Shown piece after piece: positions 1,459 to 57,427 of a DNA stretch of 57,427 bases. The translations under genes were made by a program, and so were the position numbers. Source of the stretch: a virus (Duplodnaviria > Heunggongvirae > Uroviricota > Caudoviricetes). Location of the stretch: the IMG/VR virus record IMGVR_UViG_2778261297_000008, one strand, 5' to 3'. Each line of letters opens with the position of its first letter. The first letter of the stretch is position 1. A model generated the notes under the pieces. The model had not been told where the DNA came from. It made no database searches and saw only the letters and a list, made by a program, of their open reading frames with translations.

Positions 1459-2622
1459 TTACACATCATTAGTACCTTCCTTATTTTTTGACTGGGACAA
1501 ATTTGGGACCGATGGGTTTAGGATCGAGTCTATTTGCCGTGCGTGTTCGGTAAGGTGATTAGGTGCAAGGTGAGCATATCGACGAACCATTTCGATAGAC
1601 TCCCAGCCTCCCATTTCCTGTAACACTGACAACGGGACTCCGGCTTGAACCAGCCAACTTGCCCAGGTGTGTCTCAAGTCGTGAAATCTGAAATCATCAA
1701 TACCAGCCCGTCTCAGCGCCGCTTTCCAGGCTGTGTTTGCGTCATACCGCATCTTCCTGACTGTTGGCGCTTTCGTTCCGTCTGGTTTGGTACAGCTTTC
1801 CTTGTACACAAATACCCAACGGTGATGATTCCCGATTTGTTTTTTCAATACGCGACATGCAGTATCATTCAGCGCAACGCCAATTGCGCGGTTTGATTTA
1901 CTCTCTTCCGGGTTTATCCATGCCACCCGGCGCTGCATATCTATTTGTTGCCATTCAAGGTTGATGATGTTCGAGCGTCTTAGGCCTGTTGCCAGTGCAA
2001 ATTCAACAACAGACTTTAATGGCTCCGGACATTCATCAATCAGCCTTTGTGCTTCATGGGGCTCCAGCCAGCGGATCCGTTTATTCTTTGGTTGGGGCAC
2101 TTTAATAATTGGTGCCTTATCCAGCATTTTCCATTCACGCTCTGCGGCTCTTAGTAGGGCCTTTATAAATGAAAGATGCGTAGCCTTCGTTGCAACGGAC
2201 GCTGGTTTTGGCGTGTATTCTGGAACAGGTTTCCCTTTTTTTCTGCATGCTTCTGCCCTGAGTTTCCAGTTTTCCTCATGACGCCGGTTCGTCATTTTCT
2301 GCATTGCTGAATAAATTTTTGATTCAGTAATGTCTCTTAGTTGCATTCCTGCGAAATGTTGAAGCCAGAATCCGATCCGGCTTTTGTCATCGTCCAGTGA
2401 TTTTTTATGTGCTTTCTCTTCAAGCCACCTGACACACGCTTCCTCGAACGTTATATCAGGTATTTCACCAAGTTTGCTGACCCGCCATGCTTCAGCCTTT
2501 AGCTTGTCATGGAGTTCTGTCGCCTGCCTTTTGTCCTTTGTTCCAAGAGACTGTTTAAATCTTTTACCGTTCGGCAATGTGAAACTGGCGTACCATATTT
2601 CACCTCTGCGGAAGAGTGACAT
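1459..2622 (-). CDS. int: Tyrosine-type phage integrase (DLP12 IntD-like)
   Basis: 387 aa; C-terminal HDLRHTW...VRRYAHL tyrosine-recombinase motifs; close to recalled IntD; SD GAGGA 8 nt upstream of ATG at 2622. Confidence 0.94.
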
Positions 2623-51123: not shown

Positions 51124-53613
51124 ATGACTACCAACAAGAGGCATATTTTATTAAACGGCTATGTTTCCCCCGAAAACTATCGCTCTAGGAGCAATGGTCG
51201 TAGTCCCCAAGTCCCAGCTCGTGATCGAGCGGTACATGGTATATCATTACTAAATCAGTATAGCCGTATATTGAATCATTATGATGAAAGACCGAGGCTT
51301 CCCCCTGTTACTGATGAAAAAGGGATTTATGTTAGGCTAATCAGTTTTGAACAATGCGATCTTCCTATAGATAAAATCGATAATACTTATTTCAAGCTTT
51401 GTTCTTTAGTTAAATCAAATAATCGTGAAACTGCGATTATATACATTAATGAAAATGACAGAACTAAATTCACTAAAAAAATAAATGACTATTTGAATCC
51501 ATCGAAGGATGGTATCGAGTTCCCTAGAAATCATTTGTTAATTGATAGCATACAAAATATCGAGTTAGCAGATATAACTTCTTTCTGGACAGATAAAAAA
51601 GATCTTATTCCGGATGATCACGGTGTTGAAAAGTGGTTTGAGCTTTGGCTTAAGGGTAATAAGGAGGATGTGCTAAATATTGCTCGGCGTTTATGCGAAA
51701 GAATTAATGGAAGGCTCGGGAATACTTCTATTAATTTTTTCGATACTACTGTTGTTCTTATCCGTACGAGTCTATCGAGATTAAAAGTTTGTCCTGAATT
51801 AATATCTAATTTAAAAGAGATAAGATCAGCGAGGGATGATATATCAGTTATAGTTAATTCCTTACCTACAGAACAGCATCAGTGGGCAGAAAATGTTGCT
51901 GCAAGAATTACGCGTAACAATGAAGCTGATGTTTCTGTTTGTATATTAGATACAGGTGTTAACTACAATAATCCACTATTATCTAGATTTACTAACTCAT
52001 CACTGGCAGCTGCTTGGGACATATCTTGGCCACTTTTCGATGATTATAATCAAAGGCCTTATAATGACCACGGTTCCAGACAAGCAGGACTATGTGTTTA
52101 TGGAGATTTCCTGTCTGTTTTATTGAACGATCAGGACATTTCGATTCCGTACAATATCGAATCAGGAAGGATACTACCTCCAAGAGCTACTAATGATCCT
52201 AATCTTTATGGAGCTATTACTACAGGAACGTCAAGTCGTCTGGAGCTGGAAAACCCGAACTGGCGCAGAGTTTATTCGCTTGCTGTGACAGCAGAGCCTA
52301 ATACTCTTGGAGGCCAACCGTCCTCATGGTCTGCAGAGATTGACAAGTTTAGTTTTGGTTTAGAGGATGATATCCGCAGATTATTTATAATTTCTGCGGG
52401 TAACTCTCAACCTACAAATTTAGAATTAGATTATTGGGATTCAGTGACTCTTGCTGAAATTGAAGATCCTGCTCAATCTTGGAATGCATTAACTGTAGGG
52501 GCGTATACTGATAAAACAACCCATACAGACCGCGAATATGATGGTTGGTCTCCTTTCGCTATGTCAGAAGATATTGCACCGTCATCTCGGTCATCGGTAT
52601 CCTGGGGATGGAAAAAGCATGCCCCATATAAGCCAGATTTAGTAGAGGAAGGCGGAAACAAACTTATATCACCTAGCCGTGATGAAATCACAAATACAAT
52701 TGAATTATCTTTGCTCACAACCTCTGGCAGGGCAACAAATCAATTGTTTGAAGTTAATTCAGATACTAGCGCAGCCTGTGCTCTAGTATCAAAACATGCT
52801 GCTATGCTAATGGCTCAGTACCCAGAATATTGGCCTGAAACTATTAGGGGATTACTTGTTCATACAGCAAGATGGACTAGTCGTATGCACGAACGATATA
52901 GAACAGAACGTGCACAGGGGACACCAAAATCGGCTAAAGAAAGCTTATTAAGGATGGTTGGTTATGGAGTACCTAATTTAAATCGAGCAATGCATAGTGC
53001 GGAAAATGCACTTACATTAATATCTCAGTCGGAAATCACCCCATTTAAAAGAGATGGTTCTACTGATCCTACATTGAATGAAATGCATCTGTTTTCACTC
53101 CCTTGGCCCGTAGAAGCTCTTCGCTTACTACCACCAGAAACAAATGTTATTTTAAGAATCACATTGTCGTATTTTATTGAACCTAATCCAAGTCAAAAAG
53201 GATTCAGACGACAATATTCGTATCAATCTCATGGATTGAGATTTGCAGTTATTAGACCTAATCAGACCCTTGAAAATTTCCGTGCTTCGATAAACCGTAA
53301 TGCGAATAATGAAGAATACAATGGACCTGAAGGAGATGCGTCAGGATGGTTTCTGGGGCCTCAACTCAGAGTTAGAGGTTCATTACACTCAGATGCTTGG
53401 AAAGGCAGTGCTGCAGATTTAACAGAGATGAATACTATCGCTGTCTATCCTGTTGGTGGATGGTGGAAATATCGTACTGCGCAGGATCGCTATATTAACA
53501 ATGTTAAATATAGTTTATTGGTTAGCATAGATGTACCAGATGAGAACATTGATATTTACAGTGAGATTCAAAACATTATTCAAATTGATAATCAAATAGA
53601 TATTGAACATTAA
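51124..53613 (+). CDS. ietS: Subtilisin-like S8 serine peptidase (IetS-like), 829 aa
   Basis: Candidate catalytic triad contexts ILDTGV (Asp), NDHGS (His), DTSAACA (Ser); co-oriented 8 bp after the AAA+ gene. Confidence 0.8.
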   Translation: MTTNKRHILLNGYVSPENYRSRSNGRSPQVPARDRAVHGISLLNQYSRILNHYDERPRLPPVTDEKGIYVRLISFEQCDLPIDKIDNTYFKLCSLVKSNNRETAIIYINENDRTKFTKKINDYLNPSKDGIEFPRNHLLIDSIQNIELADITSFWTDKKDLIPDDHGVEKWFELWLKGNKEDVLNIARRLCERINGRLGNTSINFFDTTVVLIRTSLSRLKVCPELISNLKEIRSARDDISVIVNSLPTEQHQWAENVAARITRNNEADVSVCILDTGVNYNNPLLSRFTNSSLAAAWDISWPLFDDYNQRPYNDHGSRQAGLCVYGDFLSVLLNDQDISIPYNIESGRILPPRATNDPNLYGAITTGTSSRLELENPNWRRVYSLAVTAEPNTLGGQPSSWSAEIDKFSFGLEDDIRRLFIISAGNSQPTNLELDYWDSVTLAEIEDPAQSWNALTVGAYTDKTTHTDREYDGWSPFAMSEDIAPSSRSSVSWGWKKHAPYKPDLVEEGGNKLISPSRDEITNTIELSLLTTSGRATNQLFEVNSDTSAACALVSKHAAMLMAQYPEYWPETIRGLLVHTARWTSRMHERYRTERAQGTPKSAKESLLRMVGYGVPNLNRAMHSAENALTLISQSEITPFKRDGSTDPTLNEMHLFSLPWPVEALRLLPPETNVILRITLSYFIEPNPSQKGFRRQYSYQSHGLRFAVIRPNQTLENFRASINRNANNEEYNGPEGDASGWFLGPQLRVRGSLHSDAWKGSAADLTEMNTIAVYPVGGWWKYRTAQDRYINNVKYSLLVSIDVPDENIDIYSEIQNIIQIDNQIDIEH

Positions 53614-53877: not shown

Positions 53878-54138
53878 CTATTTATGGAATTTGCATGTAT
53901 GATTTATATAGTTTTCTTGAAGTTTTATCCAAAAATCGCTATCAGTATTGAAGATTTTAGAAAGTAATTCCCCCTCTCTATTACTTATATTTTTAGAGTG
54001 TCGTAATATATCGTCAATTCTGCTATAAGGTACTCCCATCAAATTAGCTAAGTCACGTGAAGACATAGCTAAAGGTTTCAAATACTCATTTAAAAGAATA
54101 TCCGCAACAGAACTGGGTCTAGCTTTCATCGTTGTCAT
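53878..54138 (-). CDS. HigA-like HTH (XRE-family) antitoxin-type protein, no obvious intact partner toxin
   Basis: ADILLNEYLKPLAMSSRDLANLMGVPYSRIDDILRHSKNISNREGELLSKIFNTDSDFWIKLQ fits the HigA pattern; ATG 54138 with SD TGAGG. Confidence 0.55.
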   Translation of the reverse strand: MTTMKARPSSVADILLNEYLKPLAMSSRDLANLMGVPYSRIDDILRHSKNISNREGELLSKIFNTDSDFWIKLQENYINHTCKFHK

Positions 54139-54739
54139 GGCAACCTCACATTCATCTATCTTAGAATACTTTATCTTCAGTGATAACTTCATAGCGAAAC
54201 AAAAATCTGCATTTATCTTATAATTTAATTTACTATTGTCTCCTCTATTGTGGCATCTACGCTACGTCCAGCGCTTCAAATTATCAAACCTGGCCTCACC
54301 AGTCGGATTTGATATCCTCATATGATACTTATCTCAAGCCGGTTTCCAATGAGGGTAACCCCTCAGCAACAAAGCTTTTCTACGATTGTTACCCGTTTAT
54401 CTTTTGCATTGCTGTTTTTGTAGTTTAGATATACATAACCCTTAGTAAAAATAGTATAGCTAAACAAATGATATAAAAGATTTAGCTGTGGCATTTTACT
54501 TACTAAATTTCGATATATCCGTTGTCAGAAATGAATCTTTTACAAACAGTGTTTCTTATAAAGGTTAGCTAACCAAATTTATAAGTTATCTACAACTCTC
54601 TGTTATTTACATTTTGTTTCATTTTATTTATTGCTATTTAGTTTAGCTAAACAATCTATTTTATCATGTATAATCTGTGTATTTATCCACAGATTCTGTG
54701 AATAATATTGTGTATAACTTGTTTGCTTATTTTTTATTA

Positions 54740-54805
54740 TATGACATATGAGGTACGCCTTTATGACATATGAGGTACGCTTTCATGACATTTGAGGTAC
54801 GGATA
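54740..54805. repeat. Three tandem 22-bp direct repeats (iteron-like)
   Basis: TATGACATATGAGGTACGCCTT / TATGACATATGAGGTACGCTTT / CATGACATTTGAGGTACGGATA. Confidence 0.6.
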
Positions 54806-55054
54806 TAATTTAAAATTGTCATAATATACAAATGAATATATCGCTTTTCCACACCTCTCTAACCTGATCTTTAACCTTTTATATAACCAAAAAGATTAAA
54901 GGAATTATTAAAACCTTAGTGTCATTCAGAAATCGGTCAATAAAACCAATTTCATATGGAGTAAAAATCCGATGAATAAAAATCCTGTTGACATTATTCT
55001 TTTTGCCAGTAAGTTTTAATTATTCTCAATTCATAACGTTGGTTAGCAAACTTT

Positions 55055-55076
55055 AGCGGCTAAAATTTTAGCCGCT
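55055..55076. promoter_or_regulatory. Perfect 22-bp palindrome upstream of the alpA-like gene (candidate operator)
   Basis: AGCGGCTAAAATTTTAGCCGCT read directly; 25 bp upstream of the ORF start. Confidence 0.45.
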
Positions 55077-55101
55077 AAAATCCTCAAATTTCTACTGAGA
55101 G

Positions 55102-55395
55102 ATGGGTTCTTCGATGAAATCAGTTATGCCAGAACTTATAACCGTTGAAGAGTTGGCTTTTGCATTAAAGAAAACTGTAAAAAGTATCCGCAGTGATGCA
55201 ACGCGAAATCCAAAATGTCTTCCACCAAGATGCCGTCTTCCCGGTAATAAACGTCTTCTCTGGCGTAGAGAAGATGTTAAGGATTGGATAGATAAATCTG
55301 TTGAGTCAAAGACAGAAAATGACGATATAGCGAAAGAGATAAATAGGTTTCAAAGGAAACGTGGCAGGCCGCCAAAACCCAAGCCGCGAGAATAA
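55102..55395 (+). CDS. AlpA/Xis-type DNA-binding protein with C-terminal AT-hook-like tail
   Basis: 97 aa; ELITVEELAFALKKTVKSIRSD...RLLWRREDVKDWI resembles the AlpA family; C-terminal RKRGRPPKPKPRE. Confidence 0.65.
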   Translation: MGSSMKSVMPELITVEELAFALKKTVKSIRSDATRNPKCLPPRCRLPGNKRLLWRREDVKDWIDKSVESKTENDDIAKEINRFQRKRGRPPKPKPRE

Positions 55396-55665
55396 AAATA
55401 TTTCTTAGGGTCATTCAAATAATTTCCCTTCCAATAAACACATATGCTGCACATTTTTACACTACTAATCCTGCACAAATGCTTTAGGAAAACACACTGA
55501 GTACACAGGAATACACAATACGTACACAGATTCACAACGGCAAATGTAGGGCAGGACATGTAAAGTAGGCCCACCGTAAACGGTGCTTCTACTTTACCTT
55601 CTCTTATTAGCAGCTGGGCTGCTCAACGGAGTCCTGCTCTGCGAGGCTGATCGGCTACCGCCTGT

Positions 55666-56031
55666 ATGGAGAATGATATGACCGTTTCTCAGACTAGAAA
55701 AAATAGTACACCAATTAAAGTTTATTGTTTGCCAGATGAAAAAGCGCAAATCCAGGAAAATGCAGAAGCATCTGGCTTAAGTGTAGCGAGCTTCATTCGT
55801 AAAGTAGCAATGGGTTATCAGGTTGAGTCTATTGTAGATATTGAACAGGTTGTAGAGCTTAGCCGAGTAAATGCTGATCTTGGTCGACTTGGTGGGTTAC
55901 TTAAACTGTGGTTAGCTAACGATCCACGCACAGTTGATTTTTCACCCTCATTGATCAAAACGTTGCTTGCTAAAATAGAATCAACCAGACAAGAACTAAG
56001 AAATATTATGGATAGAATCTTGGACAAATAA
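55666..56031 (+). CDS. MobC-family relaxosome accessory protein (putative)
   Basis: 121 aa; GLSVASFIRKVAMG...DLGRLGGLLKLWL fits the MobC pattern from memory. Confidence 0.55.
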   Translation: MENDMTVSQTRKNSTPIKVYCLPDEKAQIQENAEASGLSVASFIRKVAMGYQVESIVDIEQVVELSRVNADLGRLGGLLKLWLANDPRTVDFSPSLIKTLLAKIESTRQELRNIMDRILDK

Positions 56032-56112: not shown

Positions 56113-56907
56113 ATGAAGTTAATGCTCCGAGTATTTTCATCACCGAGAGGGATTTTAGCAGCTAAAAAATCATTAGCAGCTTCCTTCCTGGCGTCCATCA
56201 TGGCATTACCGGCGACAGCCGGTATCCCTGTAATCGATGGTACTAATGTGGTGCAGACCACAATCAGCGCAGTCAACAACGTTCAGGCTGTGGCTAAACA
56301 GATCCAGCAGTACCAAACGCAGCTGCAGCAGTATGAAAACATGCTGAAAAATACAGTCGCACCTGCGGCATATATCTGGGATCAGGCCAATTCGACCATC
56401 AACAAATTGTTGCAGGCGCAGGACACCCTTAATTACTACAAAAATCAAGCCGGAAGTCTTGATTCATATCTAAAACGTTATCAGGACGTGAATTACTACC
56501 GCTCATCACCGTGTTTTAACAGTAATGTTGAATGTACTACGGATGAAATTAGCGCACTGCGTAAAGCTGAGCAGAACAGTTCTGAGGCACGTAAAAAGGC
56601 CAATGACGCCGTGTTTAAGGCTCTCGACGAACAGCAGGAAACACTGCAAAGCGATGCTGATAACCTTGCAGATTTGCAAACTCAGGCAACCAGCGCACAA
56701 GGGCAAATGGAAGCTATTCAGGCCGCTAACCAGCTTGCCAGTGCTCAAACGAACCAGTTGCTGCAAATCCGCTCGCTTCTGGTATCCCAACAAAACGCTG
56801 CAGCAACACTGGCACAGGCTCAGGCCGATAAAGAGGCCCAACAAATAGTAGCTGATGAAAAAGCGTTAGCTGGCAAGAACACACCAAGCCCGAAGCGAAT
56901 TTGGTGA
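56113..56907 (+). CDS. trbJ: P-type conjugative transfer protein TrbJ (VirB5-like)
   Basis: 264 aa; signal peptide then GIPVIDGTNVVQTT...QQYQTQLQQYENMLKNT typical of TrbJ; SD GAGGTGGG. Confidence 0.8.
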   Translation: MKLMLRVFSSPRGILAAKKSLAASFLASIMALPATAGIPVIDGTNVVQTTISAVNNVQAVAKQIQQYQTQLQQYENMLKNTVAPAAYIWDQANSTINKLLQAQDTLNYYKNQAGSLDSYLKRYQDVNYYRSSPCFNSNVECTTDEISALRKAEQNSSEARKKANDAVFKALDEQQETLQSDADNLADLQTQATSAQGQMEAIQAANQLASAQTNQLLQIRSLLVSQQNAAATLAQAQADKEAQQIVADEKALAGKNTPSPKRIW

Positions 56908-56918
56908 GGGATAGCTGA

Positions 56919-57092
56919 ATGAAAGATAAACTTTTGGTCATTTTTATTCTAATCATTCCATTGATTCTATGCTCTTGCGATAAAAAAGATGAAGATTGTT
57001 TATCGACGCCAGAGAATAAATTGAACGAACATAACTATGATAAATGTGCCCTGCGCAGTAATAACAATCCTAGCCCTAAGCGAGAATGGTAA
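56919..57092 (+). CDS. Small lipoprotein (57 aa), TrbK-like entry-exclusion candidate
   Basis: Hand-translated MKDKLLVIFILIIPLILCSCDKK...: signal peptide with lipobox-like LILC; SD TGAGGGA; sits between trbJ and trbL. Confidence 0.5.
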   Translation: MKDKLLVIFILIIPLILCSCDKKDEDCLSTPENKLNEHNYDKCALRSNNNPSPKREW

Positions 57093-57346
57093 TTATGAGA
57101 ATAGTAAGCAAACTCACTTTTTGGGGAATGATTTTTTTGTTTTCTGTAAATGCTTATGCTGGTCAATTAGATAGTAGCGGATTACTTGATACGTTATTAG
57201 ATAGGTTTCAGCAAGTAGCCAGCACATGGTCATTAGTAATTGGTGATTATGCAAATTGGCTCTTCTGGGGGCTGGTATTAATAAGTATGGCTTGGACATT
57301 TGGTATGTTGGCGATGCAAGGGGAAGGTTTAATCAGTGCACTTGCA
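57086..57346 (+). pseudogene. trbL: trbL/virB6-like gene, N-terminal fragment truncated by IS1 insertion
   Basis: Signal peptide plus first TM segments of a TrbL-like protein; reading frame runs into the IS1 terminal repeat at 57347 and stops. Confidence 0.65.
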
Positions 57347-57427
57347 GGTAATGACTCCAACTTATTGATAGTGTTTTATGTTCAGATAATGCCCGATGAC
57401 TTTGTCATGCAGCTCCACCGATTTTGA
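57347..57427. mobile_element. IS1 terminal end (first 81 bp), continuing beyond the window
   Basis: GGTAATGACTCCAACTTATTGATAGTGTTTTATGTTCAGATAATGCCCGATGACTTTGTCATGCAGCTCCACCGATTTTGA matches my recollection of the IS1 terminal region. Confidence 0.85.

Follow-up and report, generated by a model that had tools for sequence, protein, structure and literature searches.

The stretch of DNA analysed here (the window, 57,427 nucleotides) is Escherichia coli chromosome, and positions 54200-55700 of it are 100% identical to several E. coli strains. It runs from proA through thrW (tRNA-Thr, 1369-1444), a lambdoid prophage and a partial thrW copy (49628-49661) into a genomic island, and the present analysis concerns the control region of that island, a long stretch between a HigA-like gene and an excisionase/AlpA-like gene in which sites resembling those of IncP-1-like plasmids are found. 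A prediction made earlier from the letters alone (the original prediction) had described three tandem 22-bp repeats and a 22-bp palindrome in an AT-rich non-coding setting. This setting was confirmed, as the stretch covers about 920 bp (54193-55113) with 22-37% G+C and no convincing open reading frame (ORF); a Rfam search of 54193-55113 returned zero matches. From left to right, the region holds a KorA operator, a DnaA box, three iterons, a DnaA-like box, a run of 12-mers, a putative promoter and two KorB operators. The excisionase-like gene, the origin of transfer (oriT) with traJ, and trbJKL follow 3' of the KorB operator pair. The comparison of these sites took in 34 elements from E. coli, two Enterobacter species and metagenomes: the window itself, four relatives from genomes and 29 loci of metagenomic origin. 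Distances are counted from the alpA-like ATG.

Iterons, oriV homology and operators

The three tandem repeats lie exactly where they had been placed, at 54740-54761 (TATGACATATGAGGTACGCCTT), 54762-54783 (TATGACATATGAGGTACGCTTT) and 54784-54805 (CATGACATTTGAGGTACGGATA), and are reported by Tandem Repeats Finder with a period of 22, 2.8 copies and a score of 103. Their 17-nt core, ATGACATWTGAGGTACG, occurs in the 57-kb window at these three positions only, with 0.22 occurrences expected (up to three mismatches allowed). The region partly matches 41-70-kb conjugative plasmids of Enterobacteriaceae, whose annotated backbone is that of IncP-1 (ssb-trfA, homologues of KorA, IncC and KorB, Kfr, Kle, TraJ-TraM and TrbB-TrbL). 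In one enterobacterial IncP-1-like plasmid, pEC187_3, nine iterons (A/C)(T/G)GACAT(A/T)TGAGGTACGC with a 22-bp period are found directly after trfA, and the repeats of the window (plus strand, core TGACAT(A/T)TGAGGTAC) share both the iteron core and the period.

The similarity extends beyond the repeats themselves. Positions 54743-54876 align colinearly with the replication origin (oriV) of pEC187_3 (79% over 134 bp, E=1e-27), and the aligned plasmid part comprises its last three iterons, the TTTTCCACA box and the first AT-rich TAACC 12-mers. Further upstream, 54676-54705 shows 87% identity to the pair of DnaA boxes that immediately precedes the pEC187_3 iterons, and contains a consensus DnaA box, TTATCCACA (54683-54691, plus strand), inside a short inverted repeat. 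The DnaA-box-like motif TTTTCCACA (54845-54853, plus strand) lies between the iterons and the AT-rich repeats, and occupies the equivalent place in both plasmid oriVs compared. It is followed by an AT-rich stretch resembling an unwinding element (54860-54920, plus strand), in which TAACC recurs every 12 bp (54860, 54872, 54884) ahead of a conserved AT-rich tail; these three 12-mers are homologous to the seven TAACC 12-mers of the plasmid oriV. The suggestion that the 22-bp repeats are replication iterons is therefore borne out by the core, period and oriV alignment with pEC187_3, and the predicted type is that of TrfA and IncP-1.

When set beside known IncP-1 oriVs (RK2/RP4, pEC187_3 and pCFSA664-2), the island region is alike in its iteron core (TGACA..TGAGG...), its 22-bp period and the order in which DnaA boxes, iterons and AT-rich repeats follow each other, and is directly homologous in sequence. 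The order of DnaA box, iterons and unwinding repeats described for the RK2 oriV (PMC4980987, PMC4081077) is that of the window. However, the island has three iterons, as against seven plus two (the minimal origin of RK2 having five); its 12- or 13-mers are fewer, and it lacks the GC-rich segment. In addition, the region is situated in a chromosomal island and not beside trfA, a gene that the element does not carry.

The perfect 22-bp palindrome AGCGGCTAAAATTTTAGCCGCT at 55055-55076 is likewise present as claimed. It is the sole perfect 22-nt palindrome in the window, with 0.05 expected from shuffles of the window and 0.0005 from shuffles of the 909-bp intergenic stretch. The palindrome corresponds to two abutting 13-bp KorB operators (TTTAGCSGCTAAA), namely TTTAGCGGCTAAA (55052-55064) and TTTAGCCGCTAAA (55067-55079), which are separated by a 2-bp gap and lie 15 bp apart from centre to centre. 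The KorB operator (OB) has been defined as the 13-bp palindrome TTTAGC(G/C)GCTAAA in binding and structural work on RK2, which also defined the KorA operator (OA; PMC11790492, PMC2680271). A scan of the window for OB gave two exact sites and one centre variant (56154-56166), where 0.11 would be expected by chance. The symmetry over 22 nt is incidental. The operator centre bases in relatives are A/C, G/G or C/C; these bases break the 22-nt symmetry and the hairpin, but each 13-mer is still a valid operator. The proposal that the palindrome is a protein-binding operator array holds, in the form of two exact predicted KorB operators.

An exact OA, the 12-bp palindrome GTTTAGCTAAAC, is found at 54641-54652, and an OA-like site with one mismatch, GTATAGCTAAAC, at 54454-54465. 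At the position of the latter, two relatives (L004 and L008) have an exact GTTTAGCTAAAC, about 46 bp upstream of the higA-like start. A further palindrome, GGTTAGCTAACC (54563-54574), resembles the KorA operator as a variant; it is invariant in an alignment of five divergent sequences and occurs in most, not all, of the 34 elements. With up to two mismatches allowed, there are four OA-like sites in the 57-kb window, all inside 54423-54652. Helper-type plasmids, for comparison, carry 8-9 exact OBs and 2 exact OAs each. The island thus shares with the KorA/KorB regulon of IncP-1 the exact OA and OB sequences and an OB-like site, TTTAGCAGCTAAA, inside trbJ (56154-56166), where the homologous codons of plasmid trbJ hold an exact OB. 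It differs in having no korA, incC or korB genes and in its abutting OBs (2-bp gap), as the two helper-type plasmids examined have no tandem intact OB pair. Taken at the level of sequence, the identities of these sites as TrfA-type iterons and KorB and KorA operators are well supported.

The helper-type plasmids do contain one OB followed by a degenerate second half-copy (TTTAGCGGCTAAAATCGTAGCCGCTGA; L007 41025-41049 and L003 27081-27105), which is 92% identical over 26 bp to the island operator pair and may be its source. Upstream of the pair, a putative promoter of the alpA-like operon (54988-55015, plus strand) consists of TTGACA, a 16-nt spacer and TAAGTT. Among the five divergent sequences, TTGACA does not vary, and the second hexamer takes the form TAA(G/C/T)TT. 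A TATAAT at 54669-54674, near OA, was noted by eye, and no promoter there passed the scan. The TrbA operator sequence, CGATATATCG, has a match with one mismatch at 54511-54520; this candidate was dropped, since such a match is no more than chance would give and an exact copy is missing from the helper-type plasmid.

The arrangement of sites is strongly conserved. Iterons in 22-bp phase occur in 34 of the 34 elements, with three at about -372, -350 and -328 (four in L012 and L018); the original prediction had named absence of the repeats from homologous elements as a finding that would count against it, and the opposite was observed. The TAACC 12-mers are at -254, -242 and -230 in every element, and their block is nearly invariant in the five-sequence alignment. 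A KorA operator is also universal (34/34), at -470 to -495 (near -473). The dual OB at -62/-47 was found in 29 of the 34 with the exact pattern used, the other five matching at one site only, and the DnaA box at -431 is present in most, while the TTTTCCACA DnaA-like box is not conserved in the most divergent relatives. Across the five-sequence alignment, which reaches relatives of 82% identity, the motifs stand out as invariant blocks within diverged spacers.

Iteron types and the expected binder

The iterons fall into different types. The GGTAC type is found in the window and in 57 E. coli chromosomes, and GGGGC and mixed arrays are found elsewhere. In E. coli 300081, the flanks are near-identical to those of the window, yet all three iterons are of the GGGGC type. 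The 106-bp GGGGC cassette of this strain matches other IncP-like plasmids in their oriV at 93-94% identity, and the sequence points to a cassette exchange with a plasmid origin by recombination. Another relative (L012) has a hybrid array with one GGTAC and three GGGGC copies.

In plasmids, the two iteron types accompany TrfA proteins that are just 76% identical. No such relation is seen for the proteins encoded on the island. Of HigA-like alleles with 97% identity, one is found with GGTAC and the other with GGGGC iterons, and identical iterons are found with alleles of only 46% identity. The AlpA-like protein is nearly invariant among elements whose iterons differ. As the iteron type follows the plasmid TrfA variants, and not the HigA-like or AlpA-like alleles, the binder of the repeats is expected from these sequences to be a plasmid TrfA that is not encoded locally. 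The HigA-like and AlpA-like proteins were accordingly rejected as candidate repeat binders for want of covariation with iteron type. A lack of binding by any locally encoded protein, which the original prediction had offered as a refutation, is ill-posed for that purpose because the expected binders are not encoded locally.

A separate occurrence of the motif was noted in small plasmids. In L006 (pMB9880_4, NZ_CP103766.1; 6357-6400) and similar 6-11-kb MobQ plasmids, two iteron-like copies (TCATGACATATGAGGTACGCC...ATTGACATATGAGGTAG) stand before a HigA start codon. The gene concerned encodes a VbhA helix-turn-helix 'HigA' with 41% identity to the HigA-like protein of the island, and these plasmids have no annotated rep gene.

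A proposed helper-dependent origin and its alternatives

Intact islands of about 11 kb occur in E. coli PS_131_S11, E. coli 99COLEC and Enterobacter quasiroggenkampii. Their far end holds a 70-aa ORF, a conserved protein of unassigned function and a tyrosine integrase (Pfam Phage_integrase, E=6.7e-26), the last being outside the window or lost from the window copy. In one intact relative (L004), the island is flanked by thrW and a 48-nt repeat of the thrW 3' half. No free circular copies of the island were found among PLSDB plasmids. Searches with Pfam, NCBIfam, PADLOC and PHROG detected no replicase in the island part of the window or in the intact L004, L009 and L042, and trfA is absent from the same four sequences. 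The original prediction had looked to a Rep gene beyond the window, and none was detected in the intact relatives. A conserved 465-aa protein was considered as a hidden replicase and set aside, since it matched no Pfam, NCBIfam or PADLOC family and only PHROGs of unknown function (which is not proof of absence); it resembles a membrane-anchored coiled-coil protein.

The best explanation, to which we give a probability of roughly 60%, is that the region is the cis-control region of a mobilisable thrW island and represents a helper-dependent copy of an IncP-1-like oriV and its operator sites, without a replicase. For its copying, control and transfer, the island probably relies on a visiting plasmid. 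A link to such helpers that is independent of the iterons and operators is provided by oriT, TraJ, TrbJ and TrbL, all of which resemble their plasmid counterparts.

The proposed mechanism would begin when an IncP-1-like helper plasmid is in the cell and its TrfA binds the island iterons. Together with host DnaA, TrfA would open the 12-mer region, so that the excised circular island could replicate without its own replicase. Helper KorB would load at the OB pair and, with KorA at OA, would set the expression of the excisionase-like/traJ/trbJKL operon, which would fit the sliding-clamp model of KorB (PMC11790492). Loading of KorB may also let the IncC-KorB system partition the circular island, by analogy with SGI1, which uses the parS of IncC plasmids for partition (PMC10954446). 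The TraJ of the island would mark its oriT for the helper relaxase and transfer apparatus, and the divergent TrbK and TrbL may alter that apparatus to evade entry exclusion. Replication itself and the effect of KorB binding are the steps that we infer.

Several observations weigh against this explanation. The minimal origin of RK2 requires all of its five iterons, four DnaA boxes and four 13-mers (PMC4980987, PMC4081077). With three iterons, three clear 12-mers and no GC-rich segment, the island falls below this minimum, and its DnaA boxes are also fewer than the four of RK2; since the iteron and 12-mer numbers are below the RK2 requirement, firing of the origin is not assured. Several relatives have mixed iteron types inside one array. 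KorA and KorB are repressors, which is hard to square with activation by a helper, and a promoter consensus scan gave fewer matches than shuffles and none at the proposed sites. An island and a plasmid with a matching iteron cassette were never found in one complete E. coli genome, although only about 0.5 such cases would be expected by chance, hence this result is uninformative. Finally, the closest complete genome either lacks the integrase end or has it rearranged, which together with truncation by IS1 means that the window copy is probably immobile.

The main rival, which we regard as unlikely, is that the sites serve as decoys. They would titrate or handcuff helper TrfA, hijack KorB/IncC, lower the copy number or stability of the helper and cause incompatibility, with no replication of the island. 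An array smaller than the RK2 minimal origin would suit this role, and there are precedents in SGI1, which destabilises its IncC helper and hijacks parABS via parS sites (PMC7433901, PMC10954446), and in plasmid pB10, whose abundance was reduced when the element PIME1 was active (10.64898/2026.01.12.698999). However, a decoy needs neither an upstream DnaA box nor a downstream run of 12-mers, and the island has both in a form homologous to oriV, with the 12-mers invariant in 34/34. The island's want of a detectable replicase of its own also argues against the decoy. Decoy and replication functions are compatible and not mutually exclusive.

Less probable still is that the region is an inert relic, left over from an IncP-1-like plasmid that integrated at thrW in the past and then decayed; this is in essence the 'degraded' conjugative or mobilisable element of the original prediction. 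The sequences are clearly derived from an IncP-1-like backbone, the window copy is disrupted by IS1, and a 2017 paper called the island 'of plasmid origin' (PMC5575072). Decay would nonetheless be at odds with a compact architecture with integrase and attachment-site (att) repeats that recurs in E. coli, Enterobacter and Salmonella (the last from a published ORF table), with motifs that stay invariant while spacers diverge, and with whole iteron cassettes that are swapped for another functional type and not decayed. The element is better described as a compact, conserved integrative mobilisable island at thrW, of which the window copy has been damaged by IS1 in trbL. The mobilisable nature that had been suggested is upheld by a gene set that includes the predicted IncP-type oriT, traJ and trbJKL.

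It is very improbable that the repeats and palindrome are local operators bound by the HigA-like or AlpA-like protein of the island. The two motif copies right before the HigA-like gene of the small MobQ plasmids would favour this, as would the position of the dual OB about 35 bp ahead of the alpA-like start codon, but the iteron type is independent of the HigA-like allele, the AlpA-like protein hardly varies, and the motifs match exactly sites with the established binders TrfA and KorB. The least credible alternatives are an RNA hairpin (a terminator or 5' untranslated region structure) at the palindrome, for which a predicted 12-bp stem (-19.6 kcal/mol, z=-3.8) is countered by the lack of a T-run after the stem, the lack of a terminator call and the unpaired or altered centre bases of relatives whose 13-mers remain valid operators, and an oriT in the repeat region, as the oriT maps to 55534-55665 and 54740-55076 lacks the TraJ-binding inverted repeat and nic region.

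The thrW island, its relatives and its transfer genes

The individual parts described here are already known, namely IncP-1 iterons, OA, OB, and integrative mobilisable elements (IMEs) riding on IncP plasmids. In the literature searched, there was no report of a replicase-less island with helper-type oriV iterons and KorA/KorB operators. Among the closest counterparts are the PIMEs (Pseudomonadota integrative mobilizable elements), recently described IncP-dependent elements that sit at guaA and encode RepA with their own iterons (bioRxiv 10.64898/2026.01.12.698999). PIMEs, which include GIsul2 and the 'IncP island', resemble the thrW island in their traJ, trbJ-(trbK)-trbL, IncP-like oriT and defence cargo, and IncP helpers have been shown experimentally for PIME1. 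They also have an integrase and an AlpA-type gene, for which the thrW counterparts are the integrase of the intact relatives and the AlpA-like gene assigned through PHROG 66. The thrW island differs in that it is not at guaA, has no detected repA/repC or RepA-type iterons, and has helper-type TrfA iterons instead. Related IMEs encode RepA or RepA plus RepC, and replication is needed for their efficient transfer (10.64898/2026.01.12.698999; PMC5704250). The PIME search used the replicase as a required marker, and thrW islands would escape a search of that kind; KorA, KorB and TrfA go unmentioned in the main text of the preprint (bioRxiv 10.64898/2026.01.12.698999).

Two islands of the guaA type (L040 and L041) share with the thrW island a module of OB, ribosome-binding site and alpA-like start, and carry 2-4 exact OBs. 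In these islands, which are of PIME type, encode a RepA of their own and come from E. coli HS and DETEC-P80, the OBs are at L041 9110, 10338, 13232 and 14042 and at L040 13231 and 14042. The guaA-type islands also have one TrfA-iteron-like TTGACACATGAGGTAG, located where a -35 element may lie, and behind one operator a 25-codon alpA-like remnant. Homology between the AT-rich repeats of the thrW type and the guaA-type PIME origin was considered and rejected, as the alignment was unconvincing and only the OB/alpA-start module aligns. From these comparisons, the KorB-operator link may be general to the group of thrW and guaA islands.

A thrW island of Salmonella Typhimurium, StmGI_0323, was published in 2017 only as an ORF table 'of plasmid origin' (PMC5575072). 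It has the same site at thrW, the same series and sizes of ORFs (HigA, a 97-aa hypothetical protein, TraJ of 121 aa, TrbJ of 264 aa, a 57-aa ORF, TrbL, a 70-aa ORF, a membrane protein and a recombinase) and a like tandem arrangement with a prophage (a P22-like phage in Salmonella), but its description proposes neither non-coding features nor a helper or a mechanism. A system alike in principle is that of SGI1 and its IncA/IncC helpers, in which the island makes use of helper regulators, has partition sites of the helper type, exchanges subunits of the mating pore and replicates once excised (PMC5704250 among the sources). SGI1 differs in being unrelated in sequence, having its own replicase and being switched on by the helper activator AcaCD, whereas the helper-derived sites of the thrW island would serve a replication initiator and repressors.

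We tentatively extend these observations to a wider picture, which we consider somewhat less probable than its negation. In it, thrW islands would be 'plasmid satellites' that consist almost wholly of the cis-sites of their helper (oriV for TrfA, OB as KorB-IncC loading site or centromere, OA for KorA and oriT for TraI), would have dispensed with the replicase, and would track the diversifying helper by swapping iteron cassettes with its oriV through recombination; the OBs of guaA PIMEs would be part of the same IncP-sensing interface. Islands riding IncP plasmids have been recognised as a large family only lately, and how they detect and exploit their helper has been stated as an open question. 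The sites described here offer concrete candidates for this interface (TrfA, KorB and KorA on defined 15-, 13- and 12-bp sequences), which makes the question testable. If correct, a replicase-less island that replicates on a helper initiator would represent a kind of parasitism that is new for integrative mobilisable elements, and would account for the spread of anti-phage systems through Enterobacteriaceae by a compact element of 11 kb. For TrfA-iteron specificity, the GGTAC/GGGGC cassette swaps seen in nature are in themselves a ready-made experiment.

The oriT of the island was located by plasmid similarity, oriT alignment and Rfam at 55534-55665 (plus strand), upstream of traJ, and not within 54740-55076, where the original prediction had considered it. 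It is of IncP type, with an inverted repeat at 55560-55597 and a nic-like region at about 55628-55640. Within 54200-55700, only 55534-55682 is common with plasmids by this measure, and the island oriT is almost identical to the traK-traJ intergenic oriT of pCFSA664-2. The Rfam family RF01760, traJ-II RNA (87 bits, E=7e-17), matches at 55549-55648 and coincides exactly with the oriT inverted repeat and nic-like region; this motif, catalogued as a cis-regulatory RNA, may reflect a DNA signal, the oriT. Two 21-bp direct repeats at 55486-55527 (AGGAAAACACACTGAGTACAC / AGGAATACACAATACGTACAC), upstream of this inverted repeat, are kept in Enterobacter and, as the reverse complement, resemble the GTGTGTATTT repeats that the plasmid oriT has on its traK side. 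By this resemblance they could be a binding region for a relaxosome accessory protein.

The gene following oriT (55678-56031, plus strand) had been labelled MobC, and is instead an IncP-type traJ, encoding an oriT-binding relaxosome accessory protein (NF010451, E=2.9e-48; Pfam NikA-like) with 70-74% identity to plasmid TraJ proteins. It is followed on the plus strand by trbJ (VirB5-like, 56113-56907), whose product has 88% identity to plasmid TrbJ, and by a trbK-like gene for a small lipoprotein (56919-57092), a candidate entry-exclusion protein with the size and position of plasmid TrbK and 29% identity to it (pairwise E=8e-5). Reshaping of the helper pore by TrbJKL to escape exclusion has been proposed for GIsul2 and the IncP island (PMC5704250). 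The 5' fragment of trbL (VirB6-like, 57095-57346, plus strand) is cut by IS1, and the full-length TrbL of L004 matches Pfam TrbL (E=2.1e-29) and has 58% identity to plasmid TrbL.

The IS1 end occupies 57347-57427 (plus strand), with the IS1 terminal repeat at 57347, and the window ends within IS1. Several strains have an IS1 in or just after trbL (it is annotated in related strains too). In the window it is inserted 252 nt into the gene, and other sites are 175, 229, ~545, 1407 and 2144 nt from the trbL start (L001 23071; L011 8072; L016 9389; L013 9629; L015 6681; L005 ~23462). This variety of sites suggests recurrent selection against trbL or a region that is hot for IS1.

At its other end, the island begins at the partial thrW 3' half (49628-49661, plus strand), which is the junction with the upstream lambdoid prophage and duplicates exactly the thrW 3' sequence at 1408-1441. 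The prophage (about 48 kb, 1369-49661; integrase 1459-2622, minus strand) is in tandem with the island at thrW. The thrW-proximal end of the island is a variable defence slot, which in the window holds the anti-phage cargo IetA (AAA ATPase) and IetS (S8 peptidase) at 50129-53613 (plus strand; PADLOC IetA E=5.5e-77 and IetS E=2.9e-34; NCBIfam IteA/IteS). Elsewhere (L004 16288-19121; L042 8356-11683), the slot of another E. coli holds a DUF262 protein together with a HEPN nuclease and a cytosine methyltransferase, and that of a third holds retron/PtuA.

The control region is bordered on the left by a solitary HigA-like gene of the XRE family of regulators (53878-54192, minus strand; TIGR02607 antidote_HigA, E=1.4e-14). 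On the right is the excisionase/AlpA-like gene (55114-55395, plus strand; 93 aa), for which the AlpA-like label of the original prediction is tentative: the protein matches PHROG 66, 'excisionase and transcriptional regulator', at E=3.9e-6, but Pfam HTH_17 only at E=0.21, and a comparison with solved structures gave nothing significant. Its first ~55 residues are nearly invariant across relatives. The protein ends in KRGRPPKPKPRE (encoded at 55360-55395), and its KRGRPPKPKP tail is an AT-hook-like sequence whose GRP core is kept in all relatives.

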